Below are positions 1 through 29,786 of a DNA stretch of 51,515 nt, in pieces (position 1 is the first letter of the stretch; each line of letters starts with the position of its first letter). The notes under the pieces are model-generated. The model had not been told where the DNA came from and did no database searches. It worked only from the letters and a program-made list of their open reading frames with translations. Made by a program: the position numbers and the translations under genes. The stretch is from a virus (taxonomy: Duplodnaviria > Heunggongvirae > Uroviricota > Caudoviricetes), in IMG/VR virus record IMGVR_UViG_2681813321_000027; one strand, given 5' to 3'.

Positions 1-1005
1 TTAATCCCCCGTGGACACTGCGTGGACACTCACGCCACCTTTCAGCGGATTAAGGGCCACCGCATCCTGCAGGTAATCCGGTGCAAAATGTGCATATGCC
101 ATTGTTTGCTGAATGGTTGCGTGGCCAAGAATCTTCTGAAGCGCAATAATGTTTCCTCCGTTCATCACAAAATGGCTGGCGAACGTATGCCGCAGCACAT
201 GTGCAGCCTGGCCTTTTGGTAAATCGGGCTTAACTCTTTTCAGCGCCAAGCAGAATTCCCGGTACTTCACCTCAAACAAGCCGCCTGTTTCTCTGGTTTT
301 GATCGCCTCACAAACTGCCTGCGAAATTGGCACTGTTCTCTTTCGGCCATTTTTGGTTTCAAGAAACGTTACACGGTTATGAACTATCTGTTCACCACGA
401 AGCTTACAAGCTTCACTCCAGCGCGCCCCTGTGCTTAAACACAAAAGCGCAACACGCCAGTAGTCGCCATCCAGTGTATCGAGCAATAGCGCTACTTCCT
501 TCTGGGACAGGAAAGCCATTTCTCGCGGGGATACATAAAGAATGGAGATCCCCCTTACCGGATGTTCTGCATCCCAAAGGCCTATTCTTTTCAGAACAGT
601 AAACATGCCGGATAGTCGGTTCATGTACCTGTTAGCAGATGACGGTTTCAATCCAGCAGCTATCTTTTGAGAACGCCACGCGATAATTTTCAACTTATCA
701 AGATCCACAGCCTGCATATCAGCGCCAAGTTCATTGATTATGTTGCACAGTTGTTTTCGGTCTTCTTCCGCCTTACGCCTGTGTTGACCGTGATACATCC
801 ACCACAACTCAAGCAAATCATTTAGCGTTCGGCGATCACGGTAGCCCTGTATATATTCCCGCTTTTCAGCGTTCGCCATGATGTAGCGTTCAGTGGCCAC
901 CGCTACCGATTTTTTGTCAAATACCTTACGCACGCGCTTTCCCTTGCGTCCGTTCGGCCTGATGTCCAGCAAATAACGACCATCTTCGAGCTTCTTAATT
1001 GACAT
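1..1005 (-). CDS. int: tyrosine integrase (P2 Int family)
   Basis: 334 aa; collinear with P2 Int as recalled (IKKLxDGRY N-terminus, LRHTFA and GHxxIQQTMxYAHFAP catalytic C-terminus); ATG at 1005, TAA at 1-3; first gene in prophage order. Confidence 0.9.
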   Translation of the reverse strand: MSIKKLEDGRYLLDIRPNGRKGKRVRKVFDKKSVAVATERYIMANAEKREYIQGYRDRRTLNDLLELWWMYHGQHRRKAEEDRKQLCNIINELGADMQAVDLDKLKIIAWRSQKIAAGLKPSSANRYMNRLSGMFTVLKRIGLWDAEHPVRGISILYVSPREMAFLSQKEVALLLDTLDGDYWRVALLCLSTGARWSEACKLRGEQIVHNRVTFLETKNGRKRTVPISQAVCEAIKTRETGGLFEVKYREFCLALKRVKPDLPKGQAAHVLRHTFASHFVMNGGNIIALQKILGHATIQQTMAYAHFAPDYLQDAVALNPLKGGVSVHAVSTGD

Positions 1006-1101
1006 TGCGAAGCCCTCCAATGAACCGCCCTACAATTTCTCCAGCCTCTTTCCAGCAATAATCAGACCAGACAAAGAGCAGGTCTAACCAGTTTTCTGGA
1101 C

Positions 1102-1422
1102 TTAGCGGGGTGATTTTTGGTTTGTTTCGGTTGAAACCTGATCGCCCTCCGAATCGAAGAAGCCATCAAGAGAGAGAGGCGGAGCAATCTGCCCCGTCGC
1201 AGCATTAGTTTGATTAAACATCACCCAATCCGAATACTTCCGAAAACGAGGATGATTCAAAATCAGGAGTAACGTTTCTCCAGGTATCATTCTTCCCAAT
1301 ATTTCATAATTTTTGAGATTGTATTGAGATACCCCTGTCACCTCTTCCATCTCTCTACGTGACAATCCCTCTGCCTCTCGAATCAGGCGAAGTTTTTCTC
1401 CAAGGCTTGATTTATGGATCAT
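1102..1422 (-). CDS. C: immunity repressor (P2 C-like)
   Basis: 106 aa from ATG at 1422 (track ORF begins at an upstream GTG); HTH region and FxKYxxWxMxNQxxxxxGQIAP motif resemble P2 C; divergent from cox. Confidence 0.75.
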   Translation of the reverse strand: MIHKSSLGEKLRLIREAEGLSRREMEEVTGVSQYNLKNYEILGRMIPGETLLLILNHPRFRKYSDWVMFNQTNAATGQIAPPLSLDGFFDSEGDQVSTETNQKSPR

Positions 1423-1537
1423 ATGTGATCTAAACTCCACGCTATTGGGTTACATGTAATACAAAACATTCAAATAGCCAAAATAAGCCTATATAAGTCA
1501 TTTTGGGCCATTTGGACGAATTAAGGAGATTACCACA
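1423..1537. promoter_or_regulatory. C/cox divergent promoter-operator (lysis-lysogeny switch) region
   Basis: AT-rich 115-bp gap between divergent repressor and cox; TATA-like hexamers; strong RBS aaggag before cox. Confidence 0.4.
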
Positions 1538-1825
1538 ATGAGCGAATCAGAGCTTGAGGGGTTCATTCAGGTAGCACCATATCCACTTGAAGCGGTGCCA
1601 TATCAACTATTTGCCAAGATGATTGGTCGCAAAGAATCAACCGTCAGAACCATGATTGACGCTGCAAAGTTACCAACGATTGACTTTGTGAAACCAGGTT
1701 CAGTGAAGACGCGAGCATCAGAAAACTGGGTATATCTGCCAGCATTTAACGCAGGTATGCGCAAAGCGTTTTTTGATCAGCCGAAAGAACGCCGCGATGC
1801 ATGGTTGTTGTGGCTGGGGCTTTAA
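1538..1825 (+). CDS. cox: Cox-like excisionase/early regulator
   Basis: 95 aa; YxxFAKxIGxxxxxVRxMID and WVYLPAxN and WLxWLGL motifs match P2 Cox as recalled. Confidence 0.8.
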   Translation: MSESELEGFIQVAPYPLEAVPYQLFAKMIGRKESTVRTMIDAAKLPTIDFVKPGSVKTRASENWVYLPAFNAGMRKAFFDQPKERRDAWLLWLGL

Positions 1826-1831
1826 TCATAA

Positions 1832-2038
1832 ATGACCAGCAATATCACCAGCGCCATTTTGGACCTTGTATTCCTAGAAGTGGGTGTAATAGCGATTTAT
1901 CTGCTTAGCAAGCTAACAGGACAAAAAGAACGCTTTATTGTTCTCAACGTTCATTACCTCGCCGCTTATGCCAGAGGTCTTTTTCCGATCACCATTGGTG
2001 CGGTGCTCATGGCGTTTGTTATTTGGCTCATCGGGTAG
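1832..2038 (+). CDS. small hydrophobic protein (hypothetical)
   Basis: 68-aa ORF with two predicted hydrophobic helices, immediately after cox; no recognisable homology. Confidence 0.35.
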   Translation: MTSNITSAILDLVFLEVGVIAIYLLSKLTGQKERFIVLNVHYLAAYARGLFPITIGAVLMAFVIWLIG

Positions 2039-2049
2039 AGGCACGAAAA

Positions 2050-2508
2050 ATGAATAAGCAACAGCGAAATGGCAAGCCCCATAACACGGGATTTCGTCGC
2101 AATTACTTTGAAAATGGGCGTTATGCCGGGGAAGTAAATAGGTACGGAGTTTTTGACATGAAGCAACAGTGCAATTCTTCACAGCAACGCTTCCGCAACG
2201 GGGAGGAACGCCATGCTAACCGTTTCGCTACCAGTACATCGCGTAGCAACTATCGCTACAGCCTGAGCGAAACACACGCCACACCTGATGGCCATCCCGT
2301 AAAACAAATTGGTGAACACACCTGGCTGATTGAGAAAGCTGGAATCGTGGTTCACAGATGTCCGCACAACCCATTTACCGGAAACCGCATTTTTGCTCTG
2401 AGCAACGGCGACAATCAGTTTGGGCAGGATTTCACATTGTACGAAGCGCTACGCACGGTTGATCGTCTGCTGCGCGGACAGAATTTCATTAAACAGGCTG
2501 ATTTATAA
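2050..2508 (+). CDS. early-region protein (hypothetical; position of P2 B / 186 CII)
   Basis: 152 aa from ATG 2050 with gagg RBS (track ORF starts at TTG 2023); assignment is by synteny only. Confidence 0.45.
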   Translation: MNKQQRNGKPHNTGFRRNYFENGRYAGEVNRYGVFDMKQQCNSSQQRFRNGEERHANRFATSTSRSNYRYSLSETHATPDGHPVKQIGEHTWLIEKAGIVVHRCPHNPFTGNRIFALSNGDNQFGQDFTLYEALRTVDRLLRGQNFIKQADL

Positions 2509-2518
2509 CAGGTGCTTT

Positions 2519-2797
2519 ATGACCAAAGAGCATGCACAAGGTGTATTTATCCGTTTTATTGATTTTCGCGGTGAACTGTTATTACGCGCATCAGCTATTG
2601 ATGGAGTCGTCCCATCAGAAAAAAATGCAGCTACTTACGTTTATCTGAACGGCACGCGCCTGACCGTAGAACTTCCGTACCAGACTGTACACGAAATCAT
2701 TAGCGAAGCTGAAAAAGCACGTAATATTAATGGCGATAAACCCTATATCGAAATTATCTGCATGGATTCAGAAGCTGAAATTCAGAAAGCAGATTAA
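2519..2797 (+). CDS. hypothetical early protein
   Basis: 92 aa from ATG 2519; acidic C-terminus; same operon orientation. Confidence 0.5.
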   Translation: MTKEHAQGVFIRFIDFRGELLLRASAIDGVVPSEKNAATYVYLNGTRLTVELPYQTVHEIISEAEKARNINGDKPYIEIICMDSEAEIQKAD

Positions 2798-2808
2798 AGG
2801 ACGTTGCG

Positions 2809-3051
2809 ATGGGCAAAGAATATAAAACTCTCATTAACAAAGCACTTGAGCGTTTTTATTTTCGCTTAAGTGCATCAGGCGCGCATGCTGAACGTGCAGC
2901 CCGTGACTCATTGACCAGGGCAATCCGGAGTCTGTATGACGTGGCTTTTTACGCTGATGATCTGGATGCACTTAACGAACTTTCCGAGCTGATCTGTGCC
3001 GCAGAATGCGGGGAACATATTGAACCGTATAAGCTGGGGAATATCGCATGA
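2809..3051 (+). CDS. hypothetical early protein
   Basis: 80 aa; RBS present; stop overlaps next start. Confidence 0.5.
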   Translation: MGKEYKTLINKALERFYFRLSASGAHAERAARDSLTRAIRSLYDVAFYADDLDALNELSELICAAECGEHIEPYKLGNIA

Positions 3052-3161
3052 GTATATTTATCTCATGGCTTGTTCTGATTATTTCGGTGGCCTGCGCCAT
3101 TGGGATTATGCGAATTATTAATTCAGTGAAAAATATTGAACGCTTTTTCACTGGCGAATAA
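3048..3161 (+). CDS. small hydrophobic peptide (hypothetical)
   Basis: 37 codons (MSIFISWLVLIISVACAIGIM...), ATGA overlap with upstream stop; not in the ORF track because of size. Confidence 0.3.
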   Translation: MSIFISWLVLIISVACAIGIMRIINSVKNIERFFTGE

Positions 3162-3247
3162 CAGCGCAAATAAAACCACAGGTTAAATAAGAAAATGTAA
3201 AAACAATCCGCATTCGCGGAGGTATTCACACACGCCAAGGAGGCGTA

Positions 3248-3451
3248 ATGGCAATTAAGCATTTTCCTGTCGTTCGTTTTACCTCCAGAGGACGTGAATA
3301 CGAAGTCGACGAACGCCTGATTACCACAATCGACAAACACCGTTCGGAAAAGGATGCACACCACATCTACCTCACTGACGGCACTTACTTCTGCGCCACC
3401 AACGTGGCGCGGGTGAATCTTATCCGACAAGTACAGGAGCCACGCAGATGA
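3248..3451 (+). CDS. hypothetical early protein
   Basis: 67 aa; strong RBS aaggagg; ATGA overlap with next gene. Confidence 0.5.
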   Translation: MAIKHFPVVRFTSRGREYEVDERLITTIDKHRSEKDAHHIYLTDGTYFCATNVARVNLIRQVQEPRR

Positions 3452-3714
3452 CCATTCTGGACTACATCGCTACCCATCCGGGTTGTAGCGGCGGAGAAAT
3501 CGCCGCAGCACTGAATACCCCAACCACAGCCATCAATGCTGAGTTACGCCGACTCTGGCGCGGCGGCTTAGTCATCAGAACAAACCGCAGCACAGGTGGT
3601 CGCGCTCGCAAAGCAGGAGGCCAAGCTTCTTACCACGTAAACCCGATGCCGTTCGGGTGTAGCAATCCACTTACTCACATGTTTAACCAGCTACTGAAGG
3701 AAACCAGAGCATGA
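3448..3714 (+). CDS. hypothetical protein, possible winged-helix DNA binding
   Basis: 88 aa; N-terminal ILDYIATHPGCSGGEIAAAL pattern resembles wHTH regulators; translationally coupled. Confidence 0.45.
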   Translation: MTILDYIATHPGCSGGEIAAALNTPTTAINAELRRLWRGGLVIRTNRSTGGRARKAGGQASYHVNPMPFGCSNPLTHMFNQLLKETRA

Positions 3715-4010
3715 GCACCATCAATCACCAGAAGCTACGCGAACTGGCATTTGCCCTGCAACGAATGGCAACGCCTCAAAAATTACTGGTATTTCGCGCA
3801 ATGCTCTCGCCGTCTGCTGTGCTGGCACTGCTGGATGAGCTGGAGCACGCCAGAACCACGGCTCCTGCCATTCGTCTGACGCTCCATCATGAAATCGCTG
3901 ATTTCTGCGCGACGTTGAAGGCGCCAGGCGAACCGGAAACACCGGAAGTAATACAGCAAGAACTGCTGCAACGCATTGACAAGGTTTTTGATTTTTTTCT
4001 GAACCAGTAA
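3711..4010 (+). CDS. hypothetical early protein
   Basis: 99 aa; ATGA coupling to upstream gene. Confidence 0.5.
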   Translation: MSTINHQKLRELAFALQRMATPQKLLVFRAMLSPSAVLALLDELEHARTTAPAIRLTLHHEIADFCATLKAPGEPETPEVIQQELLQRIDKVFDFFLNQ

Positions 4011-4042
4011 GAAACCAGAACATGCACACACAAAAAAACCGC

Positions 4043-4153
4043 TTGCCATGCCGCAATCAGTCAGGTTACATTTCCGCTGCACCTCACAAAACGGGTGTCG
4101 GGTTTCGCAGCCTGCTGACTACACAAGCGCACAACCGCGCCAGCGGTTTTTTT
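4043..4153 (+). ncRNA. candidate small RNA (promoter to intrinsic terminator)
   Basis: TTGCCA-N17-TACATT at 4043-4071, then stem aaccgc/gcggtt (4133-4148) followed by T5-7; no ORF with RBS inside. Confidence 0.25.
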
Positions 4154-4332
4154 GTGCGTACTGTATTGCCACGTTTTTTTCGCGTCAGAATTATGGCGGG
4201 GCGTACGGGGCCGACTTCGGTCGGGCCGGGTTCTTGTGTAGCCGGTACTGCGAACCTCGTACGTCTCGCCACCCACAGTTTCGCAGCTCTGGATGGTGAG
4301 TTTTCACAACTTACTACACAAGGGGCCACACC

Positions 4333-4563
4333 ATGGCAAACCGCAAACCACACCGCGCTATCGCGGAGAGTCGTCACATCCAGACTGAAATCAACCGCAG
4401 ACTTTCCCGCGCATCACGCGTCGCGCAAATCATGCACATCAATATGCTGCATGAGCGCAGCCACGCACTATCAAACATTTATTCCGCCTCTGTTTTCAGC
4501 TATCTGGCGGATGATCTGCACGAGCTTCAACAGCTCATCCAGCAGCAAAACAAACTCCATTAA
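4333..4563 (+). CDS. hypothetical protein
   Basis: 76 aa; aagggg RBS 9 nt upstream. Confidence 0.4.
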   Translation: MANRKPHRAIAESRHIQTEINRRLSRASRVAQIMHINMLHERSHALSNIYSASVFSYLADDLHELQQLIQQQNKLH

Positions 4564-4635
4564 TTCCTGTTCCGGGCCTTTCCTGCACCTTGCGGCGGGA
4601 GGCCTTCGCACATCTGTAACAAGAGGATTGCCGCA

Positions 4636-5001
4636 ATGATTCTCGCCAACGACTTTCTTGAATACCTGCTCAACACAGAACGTGATCTTGCCGCTCGCGT
4701 GCGTGATCGTTATGACATGTACCTGAAATCCCTGCCTGTACCGCAGCTCGCTGACGGAAAGATTGTTATTGATGGTCGCTACATGATTGACAGCCACGAG
4801 GGAAATTACAGGCTTTACCGCATTGAAGGTGGCACCCCGTCCGTTATTGGCATTTACCAGCGCCCATCCTCTGCAATCGTCGATGTGATTGCCGACAGCA
4901 TCCGCATCACACATCGCCATGCCGACACAGAAGACACCGTGCTGGAAATTCAGCGGCTGGCTACAGTCTGCCGCGACACCCTGAATGGCATGACGAAGTA
5001 A
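4636..5001 (+). CDS. hypothetical protein
   Basis: 121 aa; immediately upstream of A. Confidence 0.5.
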   Translation: MILANDFLEYLLNTERDLAARVRDRYDMYLKSLPVPQLADGKIVIDGRYMIDSHEGNYRLYRIEGGTPSVIGIYQRPSSAIVDVIADSIRITHRHADTEDTVLEIQRLATVCRDTLNGMTK

Positions 5002-5007
5002 ATCACT

Positions 5008-7830
5008 ATGACGGCAGAGTACATCAGGGACTGGCAACAACCGCGCCACGCAGTGGGGCGTGAAGGAACGGGGATCCCCGCTCCTGAATCCGCGCTTTCC
5101 TCCTGGCTGGATGCCTACCGGGCAGAGAACGAGCGCCGCCAGGAAATGGCTGATGCGGCGTTCTCCGCCACGCCGCTGGGCAACCTGATTAATAAAAGCC
5201 TGGACGCACAGGAAAAACAGGACAAAACCATCACACTGGCAGGAGACGCCAGAAAACAGGCACGTGGCGCGGTGGATGAAGCCATGGCCTCGCTGCGCCT
5301 GCTGCCGTCCTATCTGCGCGATCCGCTTATTCGCCACCTCTCCTTCCTGCGCAAAAAACAGGAAGCCGATCGCCGGAAAGGCAAAAAGAGCTGGCAGGCT
5401 GAACGCTACGCGTGCGGAACCCTGCGCAAAATATTCGAACGTCTGGACCGCACCGACCACCGCTGGCTGACACCGGGTTATCGCTCCCTTGCCGGACGCG
5501 AACGCCTGGATGATTTGCTTTACCTGCCGCAGCTCAACAAACACCAGATACAGACGCTGGCCACCATGACGGCGGCGATGTTCAGCAGCACCTTCGAAAA
5601 ACTCTGCGATGGCTTTGGCGCGACTGATGGCGAGCTGACCATGGATGTAACGCTGAAGGCTTATCAGATGCTGGCCCGCATGGCGTTACACCTGCACGCC
5701 ATGCCTCCACATTATGACGCACTGACAACAGACAAAGACCGGAGGAACGAACCGGACACGGAGCTGCTGCCGGGCGCAATCCTTCGCTTGACCTGTGCGG
5801 AATGGTGGAAACGCAAACTATGGCTGTTGCGTTGTGAGTGGCGGGAAGAACAACTCCGCGCCGCCTGTCTGGTTTCCAGAAAAACATCCCCCTATCTGAG
5901 CCAGGACGCGTTAAGCGAGTTTCGCGCACAGCGCGAGAAAACACGCGATTTCCTGAAAAGTTTCATGCTGGAAAATGAAGACGGGTTCACGATTGATCTC
6001 GAGACGGTGTATTACGCGGGAGTAAGTAACCCGGTTCACCGTAAGGCAGAAATGATGGCCACCATGAAGGGACTGGAACTTCTGGCCGAAGCCCGTGGCG
6101 ACAGAGCGGTGTTTCTGACCGTCACCTGCCCGTCAAAATACCACGCAACAACGGAGAACGGTCATCCGAACCCCAAATGGAACGGGGCCACCATGCGCGA
6201 CTCCAGCGATTACCTGGTTAACACGTTTTTTGCGGCGGTCCGCAAAAAACTGAACCGCGACGGCCTGCGCTGGTATGGCATCCGCACGGTGGAGCCTCAC
6301 CATGACGGCACTGTGCACTGGCATATGATGGTCTTTGCACATCCGGACGAGATTGAAACCATCGTGTCCCACGTCTGCGATATTGCCATTCAGGAGGGCC
6401 GCCACGAGCTGGGCGATGACATAACTCCGCGTTTTAAGGCGGAGTATGTCGACGGCTCAAAAGGCACACCAACCAGCTACATCGCCACCTACATCGGAAA
6501 GAACCTGGACAGCCGCGCCGTGGATGGCATCGACCCGAAAACGGGCAAGCCACGCGTTGACCACGAAACCGGAAAATCAATGGCCGAGAGCGTGGAGCGC
6601 GCCATCGGCTGGGCGCGCCTTCACCGGGTCCGTCAGTTCCAGTTCTTTGGCATCCCCTCCCGTCAGGTGTGGCGTGAACTGCGCCGCCTTGCCAGCCAGA
6701 TGGCACGCAATCCGGAAGGCCCGCAACGGCTGAAAGATGATGCAATGGATGCGGTACTCGCTGCCGCCGATGCCGGGTGTTTTGCCACCTACATTGAAAA
6801 ACAGGGTGGCGTGCTTGTTCCACGCAAGGACTACCTGATTCGCACCGCCTACGACCTCGCAGATGAGCTGAACGATTACGGCGAACAGAGCGTACAGATT
6901 TACGGGATCTGGTCACCACTCATCGGGGAATCCTCCCGTGTGTGCACGCATCCGGATAACTGGAAGCTGGTAAGACGTAAACCAGAACCGGAAGACAACG
7001 CCCACGAAAATGGTTTTGACCTTCAGGGCGGCCCTGCCGCCCCTTGGACTCGTGGCAATAACTGTCCCCGTGTACAGGAAACGGACGACAACGGGACAGA
7101 ACAGCCGGAAGAACGGCCAGCACCGTGGCCGCAGCTCCCTGACGGCGTTGAAGTGAACGAATGGATGCGCTCACTGAAACGGCACGAACGCCGGGCGCTG
7201 ATGCGTTCGCTTCGTGACAAACAGGCAAAAAACAGCAGTGATGAAATGCAGAGCTGGACACAGAGCCGCAAACAGCAGCGGCCTTTGCCTGATAACCACG
7301 AATTACTCGCTAAAGAATGGCGGGAGTCTGCTGAATCTCTCGGCCTGCATATCGGTGAACAGCAGATGCAGCACCTGTTACGGGGCGGCAGCCTGTACGT
7401 TGACGGCAGCATCATTGCACCGCAGGGATTTGAAATTGTACGCAAACCGGATACCCGACCGGACAGCCGGATCACGCAGCTCTGGCAGCGCCTGAGCCGT
7501 AACCACGGCGTAAGCAGTACGGAGATCCGCCATAACCCGGTCGCCAGCTATCTGGAACAGCTGGGGGCATCAGACCCCGAAGCCGCCGCACGCCTGGCAT
7601 CCACACTTCAGCAGGACCAGAACACCATGAAAACACCCGTTACCGTGCTTTCTGACATGCTGCGCGCCATCCGCGACGCAGAGCACGCACAGAGAATCAG
7701 TGAAACCACTGAACGCGCCCGCCGCAAAGCAGACCTGCTGCGGGGTAGCCTGACCAGTGGAAACAAAAAACAGACAGAAAAGGGATTCACAAATCCCGTA
7801 AATGAGCAAAAAACGCGCCGCGATATATGA
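5008..7830 (+). CDS. A: rolling-circle replication initiator (P2 gpA family)
   Basis: 940 aa; HUH motif VHWHMMVF (about 6316-6336) and two-tyrosine motif YIATYIGK (about 6475-6501); long charged C-terminal region. Confidence 0.85.
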   Translation: MTAEYIRDWQQPRHAVGREGTGIPAPESALSSWLDAYRAENERRQEMADAAFSATPLGNLINKSLDAQEKQDKTITLAGDARKQARGAVDEAMASLRLLPSYLRDPLIRHLSFLRKKQEADRRKGKKSWQAERYACGTLRKIFERLDRTDHRWLTPGYRSLAGRERLDDLLYLPQLNKHQIQTLATMTAAMFSSTFEKLCDGFGATDGELTMDVTLKAYQMLARMALHLHAMPPHYDALTTDKDRRNEPDTELLPGAILRLTCAEWWKRKLWLLRCEWREEQLRAACLVSRKTSPYLSQDALSEFRAQREKTRDFLKSFMLENEDGFTIDLETVYYAGVSNPVHRKAEMMATMKGLELLAEARGDRAVFLTVTCPSKYHATTENGHPNPKWNGATMRDSSDYLVNTFFAAVRKKLNRDGLRWYGIRTVEPHHDGTVHWHMMVFAHPDEIETIVSHVCDIAIQEGRHELGDDITPRFKAEYVDGSKGTPTSYIATYIGKNLDSRAVDGIDPKTGKPRVDHETGKSMAESVERAIGWARLHRVRQFQFFGIPSRQVWRELRRLASQMARNPEGPQRLKDDAMDAVLAAADAGCFATYIEKQGGVLVPRKDYLIRTAYDLADELNDYGEQSVQIYGIWSPLIGESSRVCTHPDNWKLVRRKPEPEDNAHENGFDLQGGPAAPWTRGNNCPRVQETDDNGTEQPEERPAPWPQLPDGVEVNEWMRSLKRHERRALMRSLRDKQAKNSSDEMQSWTQSRKQQRPLPDNHELLAKEWRESAESLGLHIGEQQMQHLLRGGSLYVDGSIIAPQGFEIVRKPDTRPDSRITQLWQRLSRNHGVSSTEIRHNPVASYLEQLGASDPEAAARLASTLQQDQNTMKTPVTVLSDMLRAIRDAEHAQRISETTERARRKADLLRGSLTSGNKKQTEKGFTNPVNEQKTRRDI

Positions 7831-7875
7831 AGCGCGCATAAAACAGGCAAAAACGGGATTTCAGAATCCCGTAAA
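7782..7875. promoter_or_regulatory. paired palindromic repeats upstream of parM (parC-like centromere/operator candidate)
   Basis: gggattcacaaatcccgtaaa (7782-7802, inside the last codons of A) and gggatttcagaatcccgtaaa (7855-7875); each an inverted repeat gggatt-N4-aatccc; copies in repeat units 2 and 3, absent from unit 4. Confidence 0.4.
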
Positions 7876-7906
7876 CGATTAATTAATCAACATAAGGAAA
7901 AGCGAC

Positions 7907-8866
7907 ATGAAAATTTGTATCGATGACGGCTCCACCAACATCAAGCTGGCATGGACTGAGAAGGGCGAACGCCGCAACGCCATCAGCCCAAACAGCTTCA
8001 AGTCGGAATGGTCTGCGCCGTTCGGTGGCACGCAGCCCGCGAACTACATGCTTGATGGCGTGCGCTATGGTTTTGATCCGGTCAGCGATCGCTTTGTCCA
8101 GACGACCGACACGCAATACCAGTACAGCGATGTGAATGTCATTGCCATTCATCACGCGCTGGTCAAATCAGGCATCACACCACAGGAAGTGGATGTGGTT
8201 GTCACCCTGCCACTGAGCGAATATTTCGACACAAACGCACAGCCGGACATGGCCAACATCAATCGCAAAAAAGCAAACGTCATGCGCCCGGTGGCGTACC
8301 AGAACGGAAAAGCATTCACTATCCGTAACGTACGGGTTATGCCTGAATCCATTCCGGCTGGTTTTAAAGCACTGGCTGACATGAGTCCGTTTGAATCCCT
8401 GCTGATTGTGGATTTAGGCGGAACCACGCTGGATGTGGCAAAGGTTCAGGGACAACTGGCAGGTATCAGCCAGGTGTTTTGCGATCCACACGTAGGCGTT
8501 TCCCTGATGGCCGATGCCGTACTGTCGGTGATGGCCACTAACGGTATGCGTACCAGTCACCACATCGCCAATACCATTATCGAACATCGCCATGATGAAG
8601 CCTGGCTGCGCCAGCACATCCACAATGACGCGCATTACGCCAGCCTGATGGCGGTTATTCGTGAAAAGGAAGAAACACTGAAACAACGCGTGTTCCGCGC
8701 GCTGGCGGGTTTTTCGGGTTACGGGCGGGTGATGGTTGTCGGTGGCGGGGCGGAGATTGTGGCACCCGCTATCCGCGAAGCCTGCGGAGTTAATGCGACT
8801 TTCATCGCGGACGGGGTGCCACAGTTTGCTCTGGTTAATGGGCTGTACGCAATGGACAAGGAGTAA
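7907..8866 (+). CDS. parM: ParM/StbA-like actin-fold ATPase
   Basis: 319 aa; MKICIDDGSTNIKLAW, DLGGTTLDV and VVGGGAEI motifs; collinear with plasmid R1 ParM as recalled. Confidence 0.85.
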   Translation: MKICIDDGSTNIKLAWTEKGERRNAISPNSFKSEWSAPFGGTQPANYMLDGVRYGFDPVSDRFVQTTDTQYQYSDVNVIAIHHALVKSGITPQEVDVVVTLPLSEYFDTNAQPDMANINRKKANVMRPVAYQNGKAFTIRNVRVMPESIPAGFKALADMSPFESLLIVDLGGTTLDVAKVQGQLAGISQVFCDPHVGVSLMADAVLSVMATNGMRTSHHIANTIIEHRHDEAWLRQHIHNDAHYASLMAVIREKEETLKQRVFRALAGFSGYGRVMVVGGGAEIVAPAIREACGVNATFIADGVPQFALVNGLYAMDKE

Positions 8867-8870
8867 ACCA

Positions 8871-9182
8871 ATGACGACACCAACCAGACGGATAAGTTTC
8901 TATCTGAAGCCCGCCGCCGTCAAGAACGAAGGCGAAGCATGCGCCTGGCTGGACAGCCTTACACCAGAAGCCCGCAAAAGTGGTCAACGCGTGGCTTTTC
9001 TGGCCGGGCTGGCACTACTGAAAATGAATCCGGCAGAGGCTTACCGACTGGCTGCATGGGCTGATGATGAGGCGTTATCAGTGACACAAACCAGGACAGA
9101 ACGCCCCGCGTCACAGCCAGTACCAACCGCACAGATAACCAGTCAGATGGCCGGAAATATCCGGGCGTTATTTCCCGAATAA
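8871..9182 (+). CDS. parR: ParR-like adaptor (putative)
   Basis: 103 aa from ATG 8871 with aaggag RBS; AFLAGLALL and IRALFPE resemble R1 ParR; directly downstream of parM. Confidence 0.55.
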   Translation: MTTPTRRISFYLKPAAVKNEGEACAWLDSLTPEARKSGQRVAFLAGLALLKMNPAEAYRLAAWADDEALSVTQTRTERPASQPVPTAQITSQMAGNIRALFPE

Positions 9183-9188
9183 CACAAC

Positions 9189-9210
9189 ATCAGGGCGCAT
9201 CCGCCCTGAT
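9189..9210 (+). other. perfect hairpin between parR and zbd gene
   Basis: atcagggcg-catc-cgccctgat, 9-bp stem, 7 nt after parR stop; no strong T-run. Confidence 0.3.
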
Positions 9211-9245
9211 GACTTTAACCCGGGAGCATAAACAAGGGGGACACA

Positions 9246-9578
9246 ATGCAATACATTGACAGAGAAAAAGCGCAGCGACTGATTGAGCGGATGGAAGCGC
9301 TGGCGAAAGAAGAAAATGTCAACATCCAAAAAATAGCTGAATGTGGCCAGATAGTTCTTCGTCGTGAAAAAGACCTCAAACAACTGATGTCTGGCGAAAC
9401 CAGCAAAACATGGACTTCAGGCGAGAAGACGGTTTATTGCAGTTTCTGCAATAAATCCCAGTACGAAGTCACAAAGGTGATTGCCGGACCGTCTGTTTAC
9501 ATCTGCAATGAGTGTGTGGATTTGTGCAATGAAATTATCAGGAAAGAAGTGACAGACAAAAAGGAAAAAAACGCATGA
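9246..9578 (+). CDS. standalone ClpX zinc-binding-domain (C4 zinc finger) homolog
   Basis: 110 aa; C-terminal [38 protein letters not shown] closely matches the ClpX N-terminal ZBD (CxxC...CxxC); no AAA+ module. Confidence 0.75.
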
Positions 9579-9982
9579 ACAGAAAACAGAAACAAGAGTT
9601 GAAATACTTCTTACGTAAAGAAATTGCCAGGCTTGAAGATGCAGAGTCACAATCATCAGAAATTCCGTTCGGAATGGATATCAACGACGCCCGTATGCTT
9701 CAGGCATACCGTATAGCTCAGGCTGCACTACAGACAAAACCGTTAAATAACATACATGAAAAGTATGATTATTTTACGGATACCGCTTGCTTGCTGACAT
9801 CTGAAGAACAAAAGATAGCCCAACTTTTAGGCGACGCATGGAACCTGTATTTAACATTGCCAGTTGAGCATCCAATGGGTAGAGATGAATTTTGCCGGGC
9901 AATTCATCATTGCCAAAATATGGTGTTGGCACGCCCGGCCATCAGGGCGCTGGCCAGGAAGGGGCAAGGCTATAAAAGATAA
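9575..9982 (+). CDS. hypothetical protein co-translated with zbd
   Basis: 135 aa; ATGA overlap with zbd stop; no recognised domain. Confidence 0.55.
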
Positions 9983-9984
9983 GT

Positions 9985-10014
9985 AAAACGCCCTCCTCCA
10001 GGGCGTTTATTTCA
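9985..10014 (+). terminator. intrinsic terminator of the accessory operon
   Basis: aaacgccct-cctcc-agggcgttt followed by atttc; copies at about 16976, 25492, 33377. Confidence 0.6.
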
Positions 10015-10467
10015 ATGCACAATAGTGCACAAATTTGCACAATTTTTTTGAACGACTGTTTACCCTTCCAGCCCGTATAGCGGCTGGATCCGTCAAGGAT
10101 CCGTGCGTGCACAAAAAAACGCGCTTTTTCTGCGCGCAGGTGACGGGGGAACAGCCCGCGTTTCAGGGGGTAAATAGCATTCCCTGAACGATGTCGCAGA
10201 GACACAACAGAATGGCTGTATTTCTCACTCTGAGCGTGAAAAATACGTGAGGGATTCTGATTTGATGGGGTGAAAGGTAAGGCCGTCAAAATCGCACTGA
10301 GGCGGCGAAGAACATGCAGTCAACGCGGTGGGATTGCGTAAGAGTCTGACCGCCGATGATGGCAATAAGCAGAAAAGCGTCGTGAAATTATCTGATTGAT
10401 ACAGGAGCTGGAGAGCCGGGGCATAAATTTTTTATGCCCCGGCGAAGCAGCAGACAAGCGAAGCGCG
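10015..10467. other. cos / packaging region (candidate)
   Basis: 453-bp non-coding region in the P2 cos position next to the Q stop; three tgcacaa direct repeats (10015-10045), 13-bp-stem hairpin 10415-10443, G-rich tract gaggcggcgaagaacatgc at about 10298-10316. Confidence 0.4.
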
Positions 10468-11514
10468 TCAGGATGTGGGCTGGGTATCTAACAGTGCGTA
10501 AGGGTTAAAGCGGATCACCTCTTCGCCAAGCCAGTCATTGATGTGCTTCATGGCCTCCATGACGGGCATCAGCTCGTTAATTGCGTAAACCCGCGCGGCC
10601 TTCTCCACATCACCAAACGCACTTTTTTCACCCGGCATCGCCCCCATAAGTTGCGGCGGAACGCGGTGCGCAGCCAGCACATCATCACGGGATGCCGCCT
10701 TAACATTCATGAACTCATCCTTTGCGGTGATCTGCTGGAACGGCAAAATTTGCACCCCCTCTTTGCCCCCGTTGGGCGCATGAATGAGCACGTTTTTAAA
10801 CGCACCGCCACCACGTGCACCCTGTAGCGTTTCTTTCAGGGAGTCCATGCTTTCGCGGTTTACCTGCGCTGCACCGATGTAGATGATGCACCCGGCGTGG
10901 GATCCGTTGTCGTAATACAGTTTTCTGAACATGTCCGCCGAATGAGACAGGCTGGCCGAGAGTAATGCGCCGAGATATTCCGGCATGCCGTAGATTTCCT
11001 GGTTAATGTCAGGATTCATCAGGTGGCACACTTTGCCAGGGCGAAACTGGAACGCATCCTTGCCATCCTGCACATACCACCATGATTCAAGATCGCTACC
11101 GCGTCGCATGTATTTCGCCAGGGCGTGCCGTAATTTAAGCGGTTCGCCGAGCATATTGCTTCGAAGCTCAAGGAATGCGTTACCGAACACAAACCAGTCC
11201 AGCGCCAGCGCCGAGAAATCCTGCCGGGAAAGCAGCGGGTGCGGGATGTAGCAACCGAGTAATACATTGCGCTTAAAGTAAAGCGCAGACTGATGCCAGG
11301 ACGTTTGCCGGGCAGCTCTTGCCAGACCGTACCAGTCCACCGGGGTTTCATACCACCGCCCGTTATCAGCACAGTACATATTGTCCAGCAGGTCATGCCC
11401 GGTCAGGCGATAAGGACCATCAAATGTGAATGCACTGAGCGACGATTCTTTCCTGAGCGCATCAGCGAGATCAATGCGTGAACTCATGCGCACTTTTTTA
11501 TTTTTTCTGCTCAT
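10468..11514 (-). CDS. Q: portal protein (P2 gpQ family)
   Basis: 348 aa; size and position match P2 Q; ATGA overlap with P. Confidence 0.85.
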   Translation of the reverse strand: MSRKNKKVRMSSRIDLADALRKESSLSAFTFDGPYRLTGHDLLDNMYCADNGRWYETPVDWYGLARAARQTSWHQSALYFKRNVLLGCYIPHPLLSRQDFSALALDWFVFGNAFLELRSNMLGEPLKLRHALAKYMRRGSDLESWWYVQDGKDAFQFRPGKVCHLMNPDINQEIYGMPEYLGALLSASLSHSADMFRKLYYDNGSHAGCIIYIGAAQVNRESMDSLKETLQGARGGGAFKNVLIHAPNGGKEGVQILPFQQITAKDEFMNVKAASRDDVLAAHRVPPQLMGAMPGEKSAFGDVEKAARVYAINELMPVMEAMKHINDWLGEEVIRFNPYALLDTQPTS

Positions 11515-13229: not shown

Positions 13230-13231
13230 AC
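13229..13231. other. junction J1: P 5' region / orphan A / internal A (= 6240)
   Basis: ...gtaaagttg + a + ccgcaaaaaactg...; compared with intact copies at 20220 and 6240. Confidence 0.85.
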
Positions 13232-14821
13232 CGCAAAAAACTGAACCGCGACGGCCTGCGCTGGTATGGCATCCGCACGGTGGAGCCTCACCATGACGGC
13301 ACTGTGCACTGGCATATGATGGTCTTTGCACATCCGGACGAGATTGAAACCATCGTGTCCCACGTCTGCGATATTGCCATTCAGGAGGGCCGCCACGAGC
13401 TGGGCGATGACATAACTCCGCGTTTTAAGGCGGAGTATGTCGACGGCTCAAAAGGCACACCAACCAGCTACATCGCCACCTACATCGGAAAGAACCTGGA
13501 CAGCCGCGCCGTGGATGGCATCGACCCGAAAACGGGCAAGCCACGCGTTGACCACGAAACCGGAAAATCAATGGCCGAGAGCGTGGAGCGCGCCATCGGC
13601 TGGGCGCGCCTTCACCGGGTCCGTCAGTTCCAGTTCTTTGGCATCCCCTCCCGTCAGGTGTGGCGTGAACTGCGCCGCCTTGCCAGCCAGATGGCACGCA
13701 ATCCGGAAGGCCCGCAACGGCTGAAAGATGATGCAATGGATGCGGTACTCGCTGCCGCCGATGCCGGGTGTTTTGCCACCTACATTGAAAAACAGGGTGG
13801 CGTGCTTGTTCCACGCAAGGACTACCTGATTCGCACCGCCTACGACCTCGCAGATGAGCTGAACGATTACGGCGAACAGAGCGTACAGATTTACGGGATC
13901 TGGTCACCACTCATCGGGGAATCCTCCCGTGTGTGCACGCATCCGGATAACTGGAAGCTGGTAAGACGTAAACCAGAACCGGAAGACAACGCCCACGAAA
14001 ATGGTTTTGACCTTCAGGGCGGCCCTGCCGCCCCTTGGACTCGTGGCAATAACTGTCCCCGTGTACAGGAAACGGACGACAACGGGACAGAACAGCCGGA
14101 AGAACGGCCAGCACCGTGGCCGCAGCTCCCTGACGGCGTTGAAGTGAACGAATGGATGCGCTCACTGAAACGGCACGAACGCCGGGCGCTGATGCGTTCG
14201 CTTCGTGACAAACAGGCAAAAAACAGCAGTGATGAAATGCAGAGCTGGACACAGAGCCGCAAACAGCAGCGGCCTTTGCCTGATAACCACGAATTACTCG
14301 CTAAAGAATGGCGGGAGTCTGCTGAATCTCTCGGCCTGCATATCGGTGAACAGCAGATGCAGCACCTGTTACGGGGCGGCAGCCTGTACGTTGACGGCAG
14401 CATCATTGCACCGCAGGGATTTGAAATTGTACGCAAACCGGATACCCGACCGGACAGCCGGATCACGCAGCTCTGGCAGCGCCTGAGCCGTAACCACGGC
14501 GTAAGCAGTACGGAGATCCGCCATAACCCGGTCGCCAGCTATCTGGAACAGCTGGGGGCATCAGACCCCGAAGCCGCCGCACGCCTGGCATCCACACTTC
14601 AGCAGGACCAGAACACCATGAAAACACCCGTTACCGTGCTTTCTGACATGCTGCGCGCCATCCGCGACGCAGAGCACGCACAGAGAATCAGTGAAACCAC
14701 TGAACGCGCCCGCCGCAAAGCAGACCTGCTGCGGGGTAGCCTGACCAGTGGAAACAAAAAACAGACAGAAAAGGGATTCACAAATCCCGTAAATGAGCAA
14801 AAAACGCGCCGCGATATATGA
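13231..14821 (+). pseudogene. A: 3' fragment of A (about residues 412-940), no start
   Basis: identical to 6240-7830. Confidence 0.8.
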
Positions 14822-14897
14822 AGCGCGCATAAAACAGGCAAAAACGGGATTTCAGAATCCCGTAAACGATTAATTAATCAACATAAGGAAAAGCGAC

Positions 14898-15857
14898 ATG
14901 AAAATTTGTATCGATGACGGCTCCACCAACATCAAGCTGGCATGGACTGAGAAGGGCGAACGCCGCAACGCCATCAGCCCAAACAGCTTCAAGTCGGAAT
15001 GGTCTGCGCCGTTCGGTGGCACGCAGCCCGCGAACTACATGCTTGATGGCGTGCGCTATGGTTTTGATCCGGTCAGCGATCGCTTTGTCCAGACGACCGA
15101 CACGCAATACCAGTACAGCGATGTGAATGTCATTGCCATTCATCACGCGCTGGTCAAATCAGGCATCACACCACAGGAAGTGGATGTGGTTGTCACCCTG
15201 CCACTGAGCGAATATTTCGACACAAACGCACAGCCGGACATGGCCAACATCAATCGCAAAAAAGCAAACGTCATGCGCCCGGTGGCGTACCAGAACGGAA
15301 AAGCATTCACTATCCGTAACGTACGGGTTATGCCTGAATCCATTCCGGCTGGTTTTAAAGCACTGGCTGACATGAGTCCGTTTGAATCCCTGCTGATTGT
15401 GGATTTAGGCGGAACCACGCTGGATGTGGCAAAGGTTCAGGGACAACTGGCAGGTATCAGCCAGGTGTTTTGCGATCCACACGTAGGCGTTTCCCTGATG
15501 GCCGATGCCGTACTGTCGGTGATGGCCACTAACGGTATGCGTACCAGTCACCACATCGCCAATACCATTATCGAACATCGCCATGATGAAGCCTGGCTGC
15601 GCCAGCACATCCACAATGACGCGCATTACGCCAGCCTGATGGCGGTTATTCGTGAAAAGGAAGAAACACTGAAACAACGCGTGTTCCGCGCGCTGGCGGG
15701 TTTTTCGGGTTACGGGCGGGTGATGGTTGTCGGTGGCGGGGCGGAGATTGTGGCACCCGCTATCCGCGAAGCCTGCGGAGTTAATGCGACTTTCATCGCG
15801 GACGGGGTGCCACAGTTTGCTCTGGTTAATGGGCTGTACGCAATGGACAAGGAGTAA
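14898..15857 (+). CDS. parM: ParM-like ATPase, copy 2
   Basis: identical protein, offset +6991. Confidence 0.8.
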   Translation: MKICIDDGSTNIKLAWTEKGERRNAISPNSFKSEWSAPFGGTQPANYMLDGVRYGFDPVSDRFVQTTDTQYQYSDVNVIAIHHALVKSGITPQEVDVVVTLPLSEYFDTNAQPDMANINRKKANVMRPVAYQNGKAFTIRNVRVMPESIPAGFKALADMSPFESLLIVDLGGTTLDVAKVQGQLAGISQVFCDPHVGVSLMADAVLSVMATNGMRTSHHIANTIIEHRHDEAWLRQHIHNDAHYASLMAVIREKEETLKQRVFRALAGFSGYGRVMVVGGGAEIVAPAIREACGVNATFIADGVPQFALVNGLYAMDKE

Positions 15858-15861
15858 ACCA

Positions 15862-16173
15862 ATGACGACACCAACCAGACGGATAAGTTTCTATCTGAAG
15901 CCCGCCGCCGTCAAGAACGAAGGCGAAGCATGCGCCTGGCTGGACAGCCTTACACCAGAAGCCCGCAAAAGTGGTCAACGCGTGGCTTTTCTGGCCGGGC
16001 TGGCACTACTGAAAATGAATCCGGCAGAGGCTTACCGACTGGCTGCATGGGCTGATGATGAGGCGTTATCAGTGACACAAACCAGGACAGAACGCCCCGC
16101 GTCACAGCCAGTACCAACCGCACAGATAACCAGTCAGATGGCCGGAAATATCCGGGCGTTATTTCCCGAATAA
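15862..16173 (+). CDS. parR: ParR-like, copy 2
   Basis: offset +6991. Confidence 0.5.
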   Translation: MTTPTRRISFYLKPAAVKNEGEACAWLDSLTPEARKSGQRVAFLAGLALLKMNPAEAYRLAAWADDEALSVTQTRTERPASQPVPTAQITSQMAGNIRALFPE

Positions 16174-16236
16174 CACAACATCAGGGCGCATCCGCCCTGA
16201 TGACTTTAACCCGGGAGCATAAACAAGGGGGACACA

Positions 16237-16569
16237 ATGCAATACATTGACAGAGAAAAAGCGCAGCGACTGATTGAGCGGATGGAAGCGCTGGCGAAAG
16301 AAGAAAATGTCAACATCCAAAAAATAGCTGAATGTGGCCAGATAGTTCTTCGTCGTGAAAAAGACCTCAAACAACTGATGTCTGGCGAAACCAGCAAAAC
16401 ATGGACTTCAGGCGAGAAGACGGTTTATTGCAGTTTCTGCAATAAATCCCAGTACGAAGTCACAAAGGTGATTGCCGGACCGTCTGTTTACATCTGCAAT
16501 GAGTGTGTGGATTTGTGCAATGAAATTATCAGGAAAGAAGTGACAGACAAAAAGGAAAAAAACGCATGA
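16237..16569 (+). CDS. ClpX ZBD homolog, copy 2
   Basis: offset +6991. Confidence 0.7.
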
Positions 16570-16973
16570 ACAGAAAACAGAAACAAGAGTTGAAATACTT
16601 CTTACGTAAAGAAATTGCCAGGCTTGAAGATGCAGAGTCACAATCATCAGAAATTCCGTTCGGAATGGATATCAACGACGCCCGTATGCTTCAGGCATAC
16701 CGTATAGCTCAGGCTGCACTACAGACAAAACCGTTAAATAACATACATGAAAAGTATGATTATTTTACGGATACCGCTTGCTTGCTGACATCTGAAGAAC
16801 AAAAGATAGCCCAACTTTTAGGCGACGCATGGAACCTGTATTTAACATTGCCAGTTGAGCATCCAATGGGTAGAGATGAATTTTGCCGGGCAATTCATCA
16901 TTGCCAAAATATGGTGTTGGCACGCCCGGCCATCAGGGCGCTGGCCAGGAAGGGGCAAGGCTATAAAAGATAA
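16566..16973 (+). CDS. hypothetical 135-aa protein, copy 2
   Basis: offset +6991. Confidence 0.5.
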
Positions 16974-17458
16974 GTAAAACGCCCTCCTCCAGGGCGTTTA
17001 TTTCAATGCACAATAGTGCACAAATTTGCACAATTTTTTTGAACGACTGTTTACCCTTCCAGCCCGTATAGCGGCTGGATCCGTCAAGGATCCGTGCGTG
17101 CACAAAAAAACGCGCTTTTTCTGCGCGCAGGTGACGGGGGAACAGCCCGCGTTTCAGGGGGTAAATAGCATTCCCTGAACGATGTCGCAGAGACACAACA
17201 GAATGGCTGTATTTCTCACTCTGAGCGTGAAAAATACGTGAGGGATTCTGATTTGATGGGGTGAAAGGTAAGGCCGTCAAAATCGCACTGAGGCGGCGAA
17301 GAACATGCAGTCAACGCGGTGGGATTGCGTAAGAGTCTGACTGTCGATGATGGCAATCAGCAGGAAAGCGTCGTGAAATTATCTGACTGATACAGGAGCT
17401 GGAGAGTCGGGGCATAAATTTTTTATGCCCCGGCGAAGCAGCAGACAAGCGAAGCGCG

Positions 17459-18505
17459 TCAGGATGTGGGCTGGGTGTCTAACAGTGCGTAAGGGTTAAA
17501 GCGGATCACCTCTTCGCCAAGCCAGTCATTGATGTGCTTCATGGCCTCCATGACGGGCATCAGCTCGTTAATTGCGTAAACCCGCGCGGCCTTCTCCACA
17601 TCACCAAACGCACTTTTTTCACCCGGCATCGCCCCCATAAGTTGCGGCGGAACGCGGTGCGCAGCCAGCACATCATCACGGGATGCCGCCTTAACATTCA
17701 TGAACTCATCCTTTGCGGTGATCTGCTGGAACGGCAAAATTTGCACCCCCTCTTTGCCCCCGTTGGGCGCATGAATGAGCACGTTTTTAAACGCACCGCC
17801 ACCACGTGCACCCTGTAGCGTTTCTTTCAGGGAGTCCATGCTTTCGCGGTTTACCTGCGCTGCACCGATGTAGATGATGCACCCGGCGTGGGATCCGTTG
17901 TCGTAATACAGTTTTCTGAACATGTCCGCCGAATGAGACAGGCTGGCCGAGAGTAATGCGCCGAGATATTCCGGCATGCCGTAGATTTCCTGGTTAATGT
18001 CAGGATTCATCAGGTGGCACACTTTGCCAGGGCGAAACTGGAACGCATCCTTGCCATCCTGCACATACCACCATGATTCAAGATCGCTACCGCGTCGCAT
18101 GTATTTCGCCAGGGCGTGCCGTAATTTAAGCGGTTCGCCGAGCATATTGCTTCGAAGCTCAAGGAATGCGTTACCGAACACAAACCAGTCCAGCGCCAGC
18201 GCCGAGAAATCCTGCCGGGAAAGCAGCGGGTGCGGGATGTAGCAACCGAGTAATACATTGCGCTTAAAGTAAAGCGCAGACTGATGCCAGGACGTTTGCC
18301 GGGCAGCTCTTGCCAGACCGTACCAGTCCACCGGGGTTTCATACCACCGCCCGTTATCAGCACAGTACATATTGTCCAGCAGGTCATGCCCGGTCAGGCG
18401 ATAAGGACCATCAAATGTGAATGCACTGAGCGACGATTCTTTCCTGAGCGCATCAGCGAGATCAATGCGTGAACTCATGCGCACTTTTTTATTTTTTCTG
18501 CTCAT
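17459..18505 (-). CDS. Q: portal gpQ, copy 2
   Basis: identical protein. Confidence 0.85.
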   Translation of the reverse strand: MSRKNKKVRMSSRIDLADALRKESSLSAFTFDGPYRLTGHDLLDNMYCADNGRWYETPVDWYGLARAARQTSWHQSALYFKRNVLLGCYIPHPLLSRQDFSALALDWFVFGNAFLELRSNMLGEPLKLRHALAKYMRRGSDLESWWYVQDGKDAFQFRPGKVCHLMNPDINQEIYGMPEYLGALLSASLSHSADMFRKLYYDNGSHAGCIIYIGAAQVNRESMDSLKETLQGARGGGAFKNVLIHAPNGGKEGVQILPFQQITAKDEFMNVKAASRDDVLAAHRVPPQLMGAMPGEKSAFGDVEKAARVYAINELMPVMEAMKHINDWLGEEVIRFNPYALLDTQPTS

Positions 18506-20256: not shown

Positions 20257-20410
20257 TGCTCCCCCTGAGTAATTACAGGAAGATTACCCGCGCGCGAAAC
20301 CGTTCTCCTTAACCCCCTGTTCTGGCCGTTTTCTTACAACAAAAGCCCTTTGTATCAGCCTGTTACGCTTTGCCATCATGACTGAAGAACCAGTCAGAGG
20401 GGCAAAAACT
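20257..20410. promoter_or_regulatory. divergent late promoter region (P leftward, O rightward)
   Basis: 154-bp gap between divergent P and O; TGT...ACA dyad candidates; copies at 28773-28926 and 36658-36811. Confidence 0.4.
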
Positions 20411-21247: not shown

Positions 21248-21270
21248 TAAGACAAAGGAGCAAATTTTTT

Positions 21271-22323: not shown

Positions 22324-22368
22324 TCAACTCACGGCGGGCATCATGCCCGCCTGTAACGGAGAGAAAAA

Positions 22369-22559: not shown

Positions 22560-22561
22560 AG
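22559..22561. other. junction J2: M / orphan A / internal A (= 7054)
   Basis: ...gagttattgcc + a + ggcaataactgtcccc... Confidence 0.85.
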
Positions 22562-24373: not shown

Positions 24374-24377
24374 ACCA

Positions 24378-29763: not shown

Positions 29764-29786
29764 TAAGACAAAGGAGCAAATTTTTT

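Follow-up and report, generated by a model that had tools for sequence, protein, structure and literature searches.

An Integrating P88-like Phage of Escherichia coli with a ParMR Partition Pair: A Possible Role on the Transient Circular Phage Genome

Introduction

The stretch of DNA described here, IMG/VR virus record IMGVR_UViG_2681813321_000027, is 51,515 nucleotides long and is referred to as the window throughout. It represents a P88-like temperate phage (genus Xuanwuvirus; Peduoviridae, the P2 family), a prophage type that is very common in Escherichia coli. The phage bears an integration module and, behind its replication gene A, the partition genes parM and parR, both of which are under purifying selection. 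An earlier note on this sequence had seen a paradox in the combination and offered two ways out, a plasmid state or a co-opted role. The paradox is upheld, as an integrative phage is paired with a type II partition pair that looks functional. Stable plasmid lysogeny is not the usual state of P88-like phages, because the prophage lies almost always in chromosomes, a search of the genomes with its integrase type found no intact attP within chromosomes, the genotype of its one circular relative occurs integrated, and a plasmid-type initiator is lacking. We tentatively propose that ParMR acts on the transient free circular phage genome, and not for the maintenance of a plasmid prophage.

The combination of an integration module with ParMR in P2-like phages is already known. 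An analysis of the region bounded by gpA and gpQ stated that, among the P2-like phages of E. coli, roughly one in four has a putative partition system, which "perhaps" permits persistence as plasmids (Rousset et al. 2022, PMC9122126). The genes bear the labels ParM and partition protein in GenBank and RefSeq, for P88 as for thousands of genomes, and in the paper on Citrobacter phage phiSM the gene appears, unanalysed, as a 'fitness' factor (PMC6456863). No functional study of the cassette was found in the literature searched, and the P88 and phiSM papers contain no analysis of it. To this we add a count of chromosomal against plasmid locations, evidence that the module is deeply conserved among P2-like phages, and a pair of sites that is a testable candidate for a centromere.

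The Partition Pair

The gene parM (7907..8866, + strand) encodes an actin-like ATPase of 319 amino acids, recognised through the Pfam domains StbA_N (1.1e-81) and ParM C-terminal (3.4e-68). The protein aligns over its full length to ParM of plasmid R1 (PDB 1mwk, E=4.4e-92), and its nucleotide-binding motifs IDDGSTNIKL, MPESIPAG, DLGGTTLD and GGGAE (phosphate-binding, catalytic and adenosine) are identical to those of R1 ParM. Starting 5 nt past the parM stop, parR (8871..9182, + strand) encodes an adaptor of 103 amino acids with matches to Pfam Plasmid_stab_B (1.7e-24) and to PHROG 2515 'partition protein' (8e-59). The actin-type partition pair that the earlier note had read from the letters is thereby confirmed, by Pfam and by alignment to the R1 ParM structure. 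The pair also supplies the two proteins of a type II (ParMRC) system, namely a ParM with intact motifs and, directly downstream, a gene for a ParR with predicted DNA-binding and ParM-binding ends.

Selection and variation were analysed over 85 related loci, mostly IMG/VR proviruses out of isolate genomes. All 85 gapless full-length copies of parM were intact, with a ratio of non-synonymous to synonymous polymorphism (pN/pS) of 0.059, and parR was intact in 50 of 50 copies (pN/pS 0.24). For comparison, the ratio was 0.13 in the 3' part of A and 0.015 in the portal gene.

The variants of ParR share an invariant N-terminal strand, MTTPTRRISFYLKP, and a conserved C-terminal tail, ..NI(R/Q)xFFPE, which flank a hypervariable linker. 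When variants and genera are aligned, the N-terminal ribbon-helix-helix strand RRISFYLKP and a C-terminal xN(A/I)xxLFP tail are kept. The tail with which R1 ParR binds ParM ends in ..KKNAMKLIN and is similar to that of the phage protein. Conserved ends around a hypervariable linker would be the pattern expected of a working adaptor between DNA and filament. Searched against solved structures, ParR gave no meaningful match, and it gave no BLASTP alignment with the ParR of the plasmid that carries the closest ParM.

An Integrating Phage

The cassette region matches P88-like phages with 92% coverage and 96.9% nucleotide identity (nucleotide search), and the order int-C-cox...A-parM-parR-(ClpX zinc-finger gene, ORF135)-cos-portal equals that of Escherichia phage P88 (NC_026014). 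P88 and the other Xuanwuvirus phages, including phiSM, share the arrangement int-C-cox-...-A-parM-parR-(ClpX zinc-finger, hypothetical)-cos-Q-P. The P88 record differs from the window in the early region and in integrase type, and the window has nested tandem duplications that were seen in no reference phage or complete genome. The features of a P2-like phage are all found: a tyrosine integrase, a C repressor divergent from cox, GpA, and the late order cos-Q-P / O-N-M (Pfam, map of open reading frames (ORFs), synteny with P88 and with an integrated prophage beside yecA). Small early genes lie between cox and the GpA gene, and the portal and terminase genes run leftward after cos (ORF map, Pfam).

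The earlier note had described a complete P2-type int/C/cox module, and for the genes this holds. The P2-type tyrosine integrase (1..1005, - strand) matches Pfam Phage_integrase (3.2e-23) and Int_N (9.2e-23). The C-type immunity repressor (1102..1440, - strand) has helix-turn-helix (HTH) matches to Pfam HTH_19, HTH_31 and HTH_3 under the gathering cut-offs; it is divergent from cox and takes the same position as the 'C protein' of P88 and an HTH gene in a Plesiomonas relative. The Pc/Pe region (1441-1537) separates it from the gene for Cox, the excision directionality factor and early repressor (1538..1825, + strand; Pfam Phage_Cox 1.2e-22). Completeness can be seen for the genes only, as the int stop codon occupies bases 1-3 of the window and the att site lies outside it. 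Replication is served by GpA, a rolling-circle replication endonuclease of 940 amino acids (5008..7830, + strand; Pfam Phage_GPA 1.9e-128), and the portal protein gpQ (10468..11514, - strand; Pfam Phage_portal 4.4e-18) forms the right border of the A-Q hotspot in which ParMR lies.

Occurrence in Chromosomes and Plasmids

A query made of the 3' end of A plus parM-parR has matches in 1,375 of 5,426 complete E. coli genomes; about nine in ten of the evenly sampled matches include parM. The cassette occupies 1,544 places in chromosomes and 2 in plasmids (>99.8% chromosomal). Overall, about a quarter of complete E. coli genomes are carriers, including O157:H7 strains such as EDL933, and the typical match is a single-copy prophage adjoining yecA.

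For the attachment site, a query spanning attP was taken from a circular copy that has this integrase. None of the 442 matching genomes covered at least 80% of it at one place, and the matches listed all break at the same position, about 180 nt past the int stop. A circular record that starts at attP would look split too, so that the test excludes an intact attP within chromosomes and not every episome.

Seven records match in PLSDB, of which one is a phage-sized circle. This is pZ1323PEC0009-2 (NZ_CP148288.1), a circular 'plasmid' of 34,461 bp from a cat E. coli isolate, which comprises a complete P88-like genome with int; the C-terminus of the window's integrase is identical to that of its int. 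Strain Z1323HEC0067 from the same study has, integrated in its chromosome, a phage that is identical to this record throughout a 3.9-kb tail-fibre region. On whether the element is integrated or episomal, the evidence is thus chromosomal in nearly all complete E. coli genomes, with this one circular record beside them.

Pfam found no plasmid-type replication initiator in the early region, where GpA is the sole initiator found and the other ORFs belong to DUF4754, MarR-like winged HTH, Ead/Ea22-like and Derepression or to no Pfam family. Neither of the marks of a phage-plasmid, an autonomous replicon in lysogens and a replication module independent of lytic replication, was found.

The chromosomal and plasmid counts and the attP result make it unlikely that P88-like phages are facultative phage-plasmids, in which ParMR allows a low-copy extrachromosomal prophage besides integration, for example in hosts without attB or as a carrier state. 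The ParM/ParR pair does look complete and is under selection, and a whole P88-like genome was deposited as a plasmid; however, the genotype of that record is integrated elsewhere, and its circle can be excised or replicating DNA after spontaneous induction. P88-like phages also bear a hok/gef gene, their ParM is 48% identical to that of the phage-plasmid D6, and persistence as a plasmid is the published remark (PMC9122126). Against these points, the sole initiator, GpA, sits in a repressor-controlled early operon, and the integrase is kept together with ParMR in the Plesiomonas phage, the one distant relative whose locus reaches int. The plasmid explanation of the earlier note is hence not borne out as the usual state, while an occasional episomal form of P88-like phages may exist. 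If ParMR did support an episomal state, P2-like phages would count among the phage-plasmids.

A Phage Lineage of ParMR

Within the phage collection, homologues of ParM are confined to P88-like phages (95-99% identity; 98.7% between the window and P88-type phages) and to D6, a P1-like phage-plasmid (47.8%). Among the best 5,000 plasmid matches, none exceeds 53% identity to ParM apart from records that carry this prophage. When the protein search was widened, ParM relatives with 53-63% identity emerged in Plesiomonas, Hafnia, Serratia and Enterobacter, and all four contexts inspected are P2-like prophages with GpA, 0-2 small ORFs, ParM, ParR, variable cargo and portal. The Plesiomonas locus (L089) also has Int, an HTH repressor and Cox. 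Homologues with 48-50% identity lie on an integrative conjugative element of Dickeya and within a Mangrovibacter region that resembles a plasmid.

In a neighbour-joining tree, which has no bootstrap support, the ParM proteins from phage contexts group together, apart from those of plasmids. Because of this grouping and of the P2-like context at 53-63% identity in four genera, ParMR appears to have accompanied gene A for a long time in part of the P2 family, rather than to have arrived recently as a moron from a plasmid. It is always the first block after A, and the genes behind it vary.

An E. coli-type ParM at 97% identity is also present on a 226-kb contig labelled Vagococcus sp. (NZ_JBQPOM010000071.1), which is probably contamination or a mislabelled assembly.

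A Candidate Centromere Upstream of parM

The spacer between A and parM is 76 bp long. A direct repeat of 42 nt, with 79% identity between its copies and a spacing of 73 bp, lies at 7764-7805 and 7837-7878, and each copy contains the element GGG-N10-CCC. The first candidate ParR site, GGGATTCACAAATCCC (7782..7797), lies inside the final codons of A (-125 relative to the parM ATG), and the second, GGGATTTCAGAATCCC (7855..7870), falls in the spacer, at -52.

The same layout recurs in other genera. GGG-N10-CCC elements stand at -131 and -59 from the parM ATG in Plesiomonas (L089; spacing 72 bp) and at -128 and -55 in Hafnia (L090; spacing 73 bp), so that each of the three genera has exactly two upstream of parM, against a background of 0.2-0.5 sites per kb. 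The two copies of one lineage resemble each other more than they resemble their counterparts in other genera, which suggests that a single factor reads both.

Between the second site and parM lies a perfect 12-bp palindrome, GATTAATTAATC (7877..7888), a possible -10 element or operator, which is present once per cassette and contains a ATTAATCAA box. The palindrome has the lowest nucleotide diversity of the spacer (0.008) and is near-invariant in E. coli, and the box, 18-27 nt upstream of the parM ATG, is conserved in the window, Plesiomonas and Hafnia. Judged from the sequence, the two GGG-N10-CCC sites together with the box make a plausible candidate for a minimal parC and its promoter.

A frame in the spacer (7832-7882) ends in ..KQAKTGFQNPVND, which parallels the true end of GpA, ..KKQTEKGFTNPVNEQKTRRDI. 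The boundary of the module thus holds what reads as a remnant or a duplicate of the C-terminus of GpA. The 42-nt repeat was also considered as a pure recombination scar; this was not accepted as the whole story, since the two-site layout and its spacing recur in Plesiomonas and Hafnia. GpA varies in length, from 940 amino acids here to 789 in the Plesiomonas relative (L089 3996-6365), and in Hafnia (L090 3946-6956) a GpA of 835 amino acids is followed by a separate ORF of 167. The C-terminal extension of GpA that bears the first candidate site may be a separable module.

Proposed Role of ParMR

According to our proposal, ParR would bind the two GGG-N10-CCC sites, 73 bp apart and just upstream of parM, and, with its conserved C-terminal tail, would link the circular genome of the phage to filaments of ParM. 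This would take place after infection and before integration, and again after excision, during the GpA-driven rolling-circle replication that yields monomeric circles. The filaments would spread or position the circles and pass them to both daughter cells, with better replication, packaging or lysogenisation as the outcome. P2 replicates to monomeric double-stranded circles, which are its packaging substrate, and a plasmid-type segregation machine would thus be directly applicable to them.

The timing is suggested by the place of ParMR directly behind the replication gene, by a scan of the A-parM interval, which detected neither a terminator on the + strand nor a sigma-70 consensus promoter, by the integrated lifestyle, and by the precedent of the AlpAC system in prophage CGP3. 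AlpAC is induced early and binds sites upstream, and efficient replication of the phage depends on it (PMC4446434). Of the two explanations in the earlier note, the co-opted role would fit better: the module appears to be old and specific to phages, it follows directly on the replication gene, and purifying selection acts on it.

A broader claim is held with more doubt: that several Enterobacterales genera possess their own P2-family ParMR lineage, with a two-site centromere seven helical turns apart, which moves or segregates the transient circle and is not for plasmid upkeep. If true, the system would parallel AlpAC in Gram-negative bacteria, and its centromere would be the smallest of type II so far described from nature. 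Positioning of replicating phage circles by ParMR would make actin-like DNA transport a general phage strategy, beyond plasmids, and would supply a compact ParMR/centromere module.

Several observations weigh against the role proposed here. ParMR is dispensable for the family: one sibling, with 97.5% identity in the 3' end of gene A, carries an ead-like gene in its stead, and P2 itself is without ParMR. No R1-type array of four or more iterons was found in the window or in the whole P88 genome (repeat finder, TRF, k-mer cluster script), and a centromere of two sites would be far smaller than R1 parC with its ten iterons. A version of the first site also occurs in a ParM-less sibling phage (L087). 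The second site reads as a relic GpA C-terminus, KQAKTGFQNPVND*, so that the pair could partly be a recombination scar; within E. coli this site is no more conserved than its surroundings. Its variants in the 85 loci keep the stem mainly via G.U-type changes on the + strand, as an RNA-type hairpin does, and an RNA fold pairs the first site with the second (z = -5.3). The Serratia/Enterobacter clade has a different upstream architecture, laid out as an inverted repeat. The ATTAATCAA box could act as a promoter from which parMR stays expressed in lysogens. Both the timing and the target of ParMR are what we infer from sequence.

Such expression in lysogens would suit an accessory, or 'moron', function, in which ParR or ParM from the integrated prophage acts in trans on other replicons, for example by destabilising plasmids or phage-plasmids that have related centromeres, or on the host chromosome locus itself, to the advantage of the lysogen. 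The cassette does lie in the A-Q hotspot known for the lysogen-expressed defence genes old and tin (PMC9122126), the box next to the second site could serve as a promoter under autoregulation, like that of plasmid parC, and ORF35 of phiSM is the gene listed for 'fitness' (PMC6456863). We regard this as quite improbable. Unlike the varying cargo of the hotspot, ParMR is fixed first after A and conserved across genera. The lack of detectable similarity between its ParR and that of the plasmid with the closest ParM makes cross-reaction with plasmid centromeres unlikely. PADLOC returned no match for ParM, ParR, the neighbouring ClpX zinc-finger protein, ORF135 or three early ORFs, and with zero matches a reading of the cassette as a defence system was rejected.

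It is highly improbable that ParMR is an inert or selfish passenger, a plasmid-derived remnant without a centromere that is kept by linkage and whose ParR is at most a local transcription regulator: the R1-type array is missing from the phage, as is the AT-rich iteron region of about 230 bp upstream of parM in the closest plasmid, and ParM-less siblings exist, but purifying selection is strong, disrupted copies number 0 of 85 for parM and 0 of 50 for parR, the predicted ParM-binding tail of ParR is conserved, and synteny is kept at 53-63% protein identity across five genera.

Relation to Known Systems

The ParMRC system of plasmid R1 is similar in its ParM (homologous over the full length, with about half of the residues identical), in a ParR of the same Pfam family directly downstream, and in the C-terminal tail of that ParR. 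It differs in its centromere, an array of about ten 11-bp iterons in R1 against two candidate GGG-N10-CCC elements in the window, and in its replicon, which here is an integrating phage with a ParM in a separate, phage-linked clade.

The AlpA/AlpC system of CGP3 likewise combines an integrated prophage with an actin-like filament protein, a co-transcribed DNA-binding adaptor and sites upstream of the operon, and its task is to support the excised circle in replication and not to maintain a plasmid (PMC4446434). Its host, Corynebacterium glutamicum, is Gram-positive and the phage is unrelated; the comparison with the window is one of architecture only. D6 resembles the present phage as a temperate phage with a StbA/ParM homologue at 47.8% identity; it is a 91-kb plasmid prophage, whereas the element in the window has an integrase, is >99.8% chromosomal, and is without a plasmid-type replicon.

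Tandem Duplications in the Window

Self-BLAST of the window revealed nested tandem duplications of 7-8.5 kb with about 99.8% identity, which give four copies of parM-parR-cos-portal-terminase. The duplicated pairs are 6240-13235 = 13231-20227, 14045-22559 = 22561-31075, and 23384-31267 = 31269-39152. Bases 6240-10467 thus belong to the first of four segment copies, and three further copies of the parM-parR-cos-Q-P(-O-N) segment follow within 13231..39152, with parM at 14898, 23414 and 31299. A further duplication of 4.2 kb, 42431-46658 = 46657-50883, covers baseplate and tail-fibre genes with 99.9% identity and a 2-bp overlap at its junction.

The unique content of the window is about 24 kb, and 51.5 kb would exceed the related phage genome records (31-40 kb). 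The junctions at 13231, 22560 and 31268 cut the genes A, P and M and show 0-5 bp of microhomology. Junction J1 was absent from the 5,426 complete E. coli genomes, from IMG/VR contigs and from JGI metagenome contigs. The copies differ in clustered patches of single-nucleotide polymorphisms, and parMR is identical in all four. The nested duplications are probably an artefact of assembly or of chimeric reads, possibly from a mixture of related prophages.

Neighbouring Features

In the early region, an isrK-like Hfq-binding small RNA (4079-4153, + strand; Rfam 61.9 bits) is followed by a C4 antisense RNA of the P1/P7 immI type (4189-4276, + strand; 83.2 bits), both above the gathering score. Downstream of them lies an ORF of 76 amino acids for a 'derepression protein' (4333-4563; Pfam Derepression 9.7e-08). 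The block resembles a module of the immI kind for antirepressor control, here in a P2-like phage.

Behind parR, a protein of 110 amino acids with a coiled N-terminus consists of a ClpX zinc finger only (9246-9578, + strand; Pfam zf-C4_ClpX 6.8e-18), and its gene is overlapped by ORF135 (9575-9982, + strand). These genes are present in only 18-19 of 87 ParM-bearing loci and are variable hotspot cargo outside the ParMR core. From its domain content, the zinc-finger protein could be a ClpX adaptor mimic or inhibitor.

A G+C-rich hairpin followed by ATTTCAAT (9986..10008) is the probable end of the rightward early transcript; the terminator scan flags it on the - strand, and on the + strand, with 4/8 T, it falls just below the threshold. 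Next comes a conserved cos-proximal block (10016..10467), which opens with three copies of TGCACAA (10016-10043) at a period of 10-11 bp (TRF period 10). The block is 93.6% shared with phage 500465-2, which is absent from the ParM tblastn list. The TGCACAA repeats were rejected as a centromere on this ground, since their presence in a ParM-less relative makes a packaging or cos function more likely than partition.

Near ogr and attP, outside the part of the genome that the window covers, P88 (34928-35068) and the circular record pZ1323PEC0009-2 (L002, 1291-1431) carry a hok/gef-family toxin gene, which gives these phages a second plasmid-style stabilisation element.

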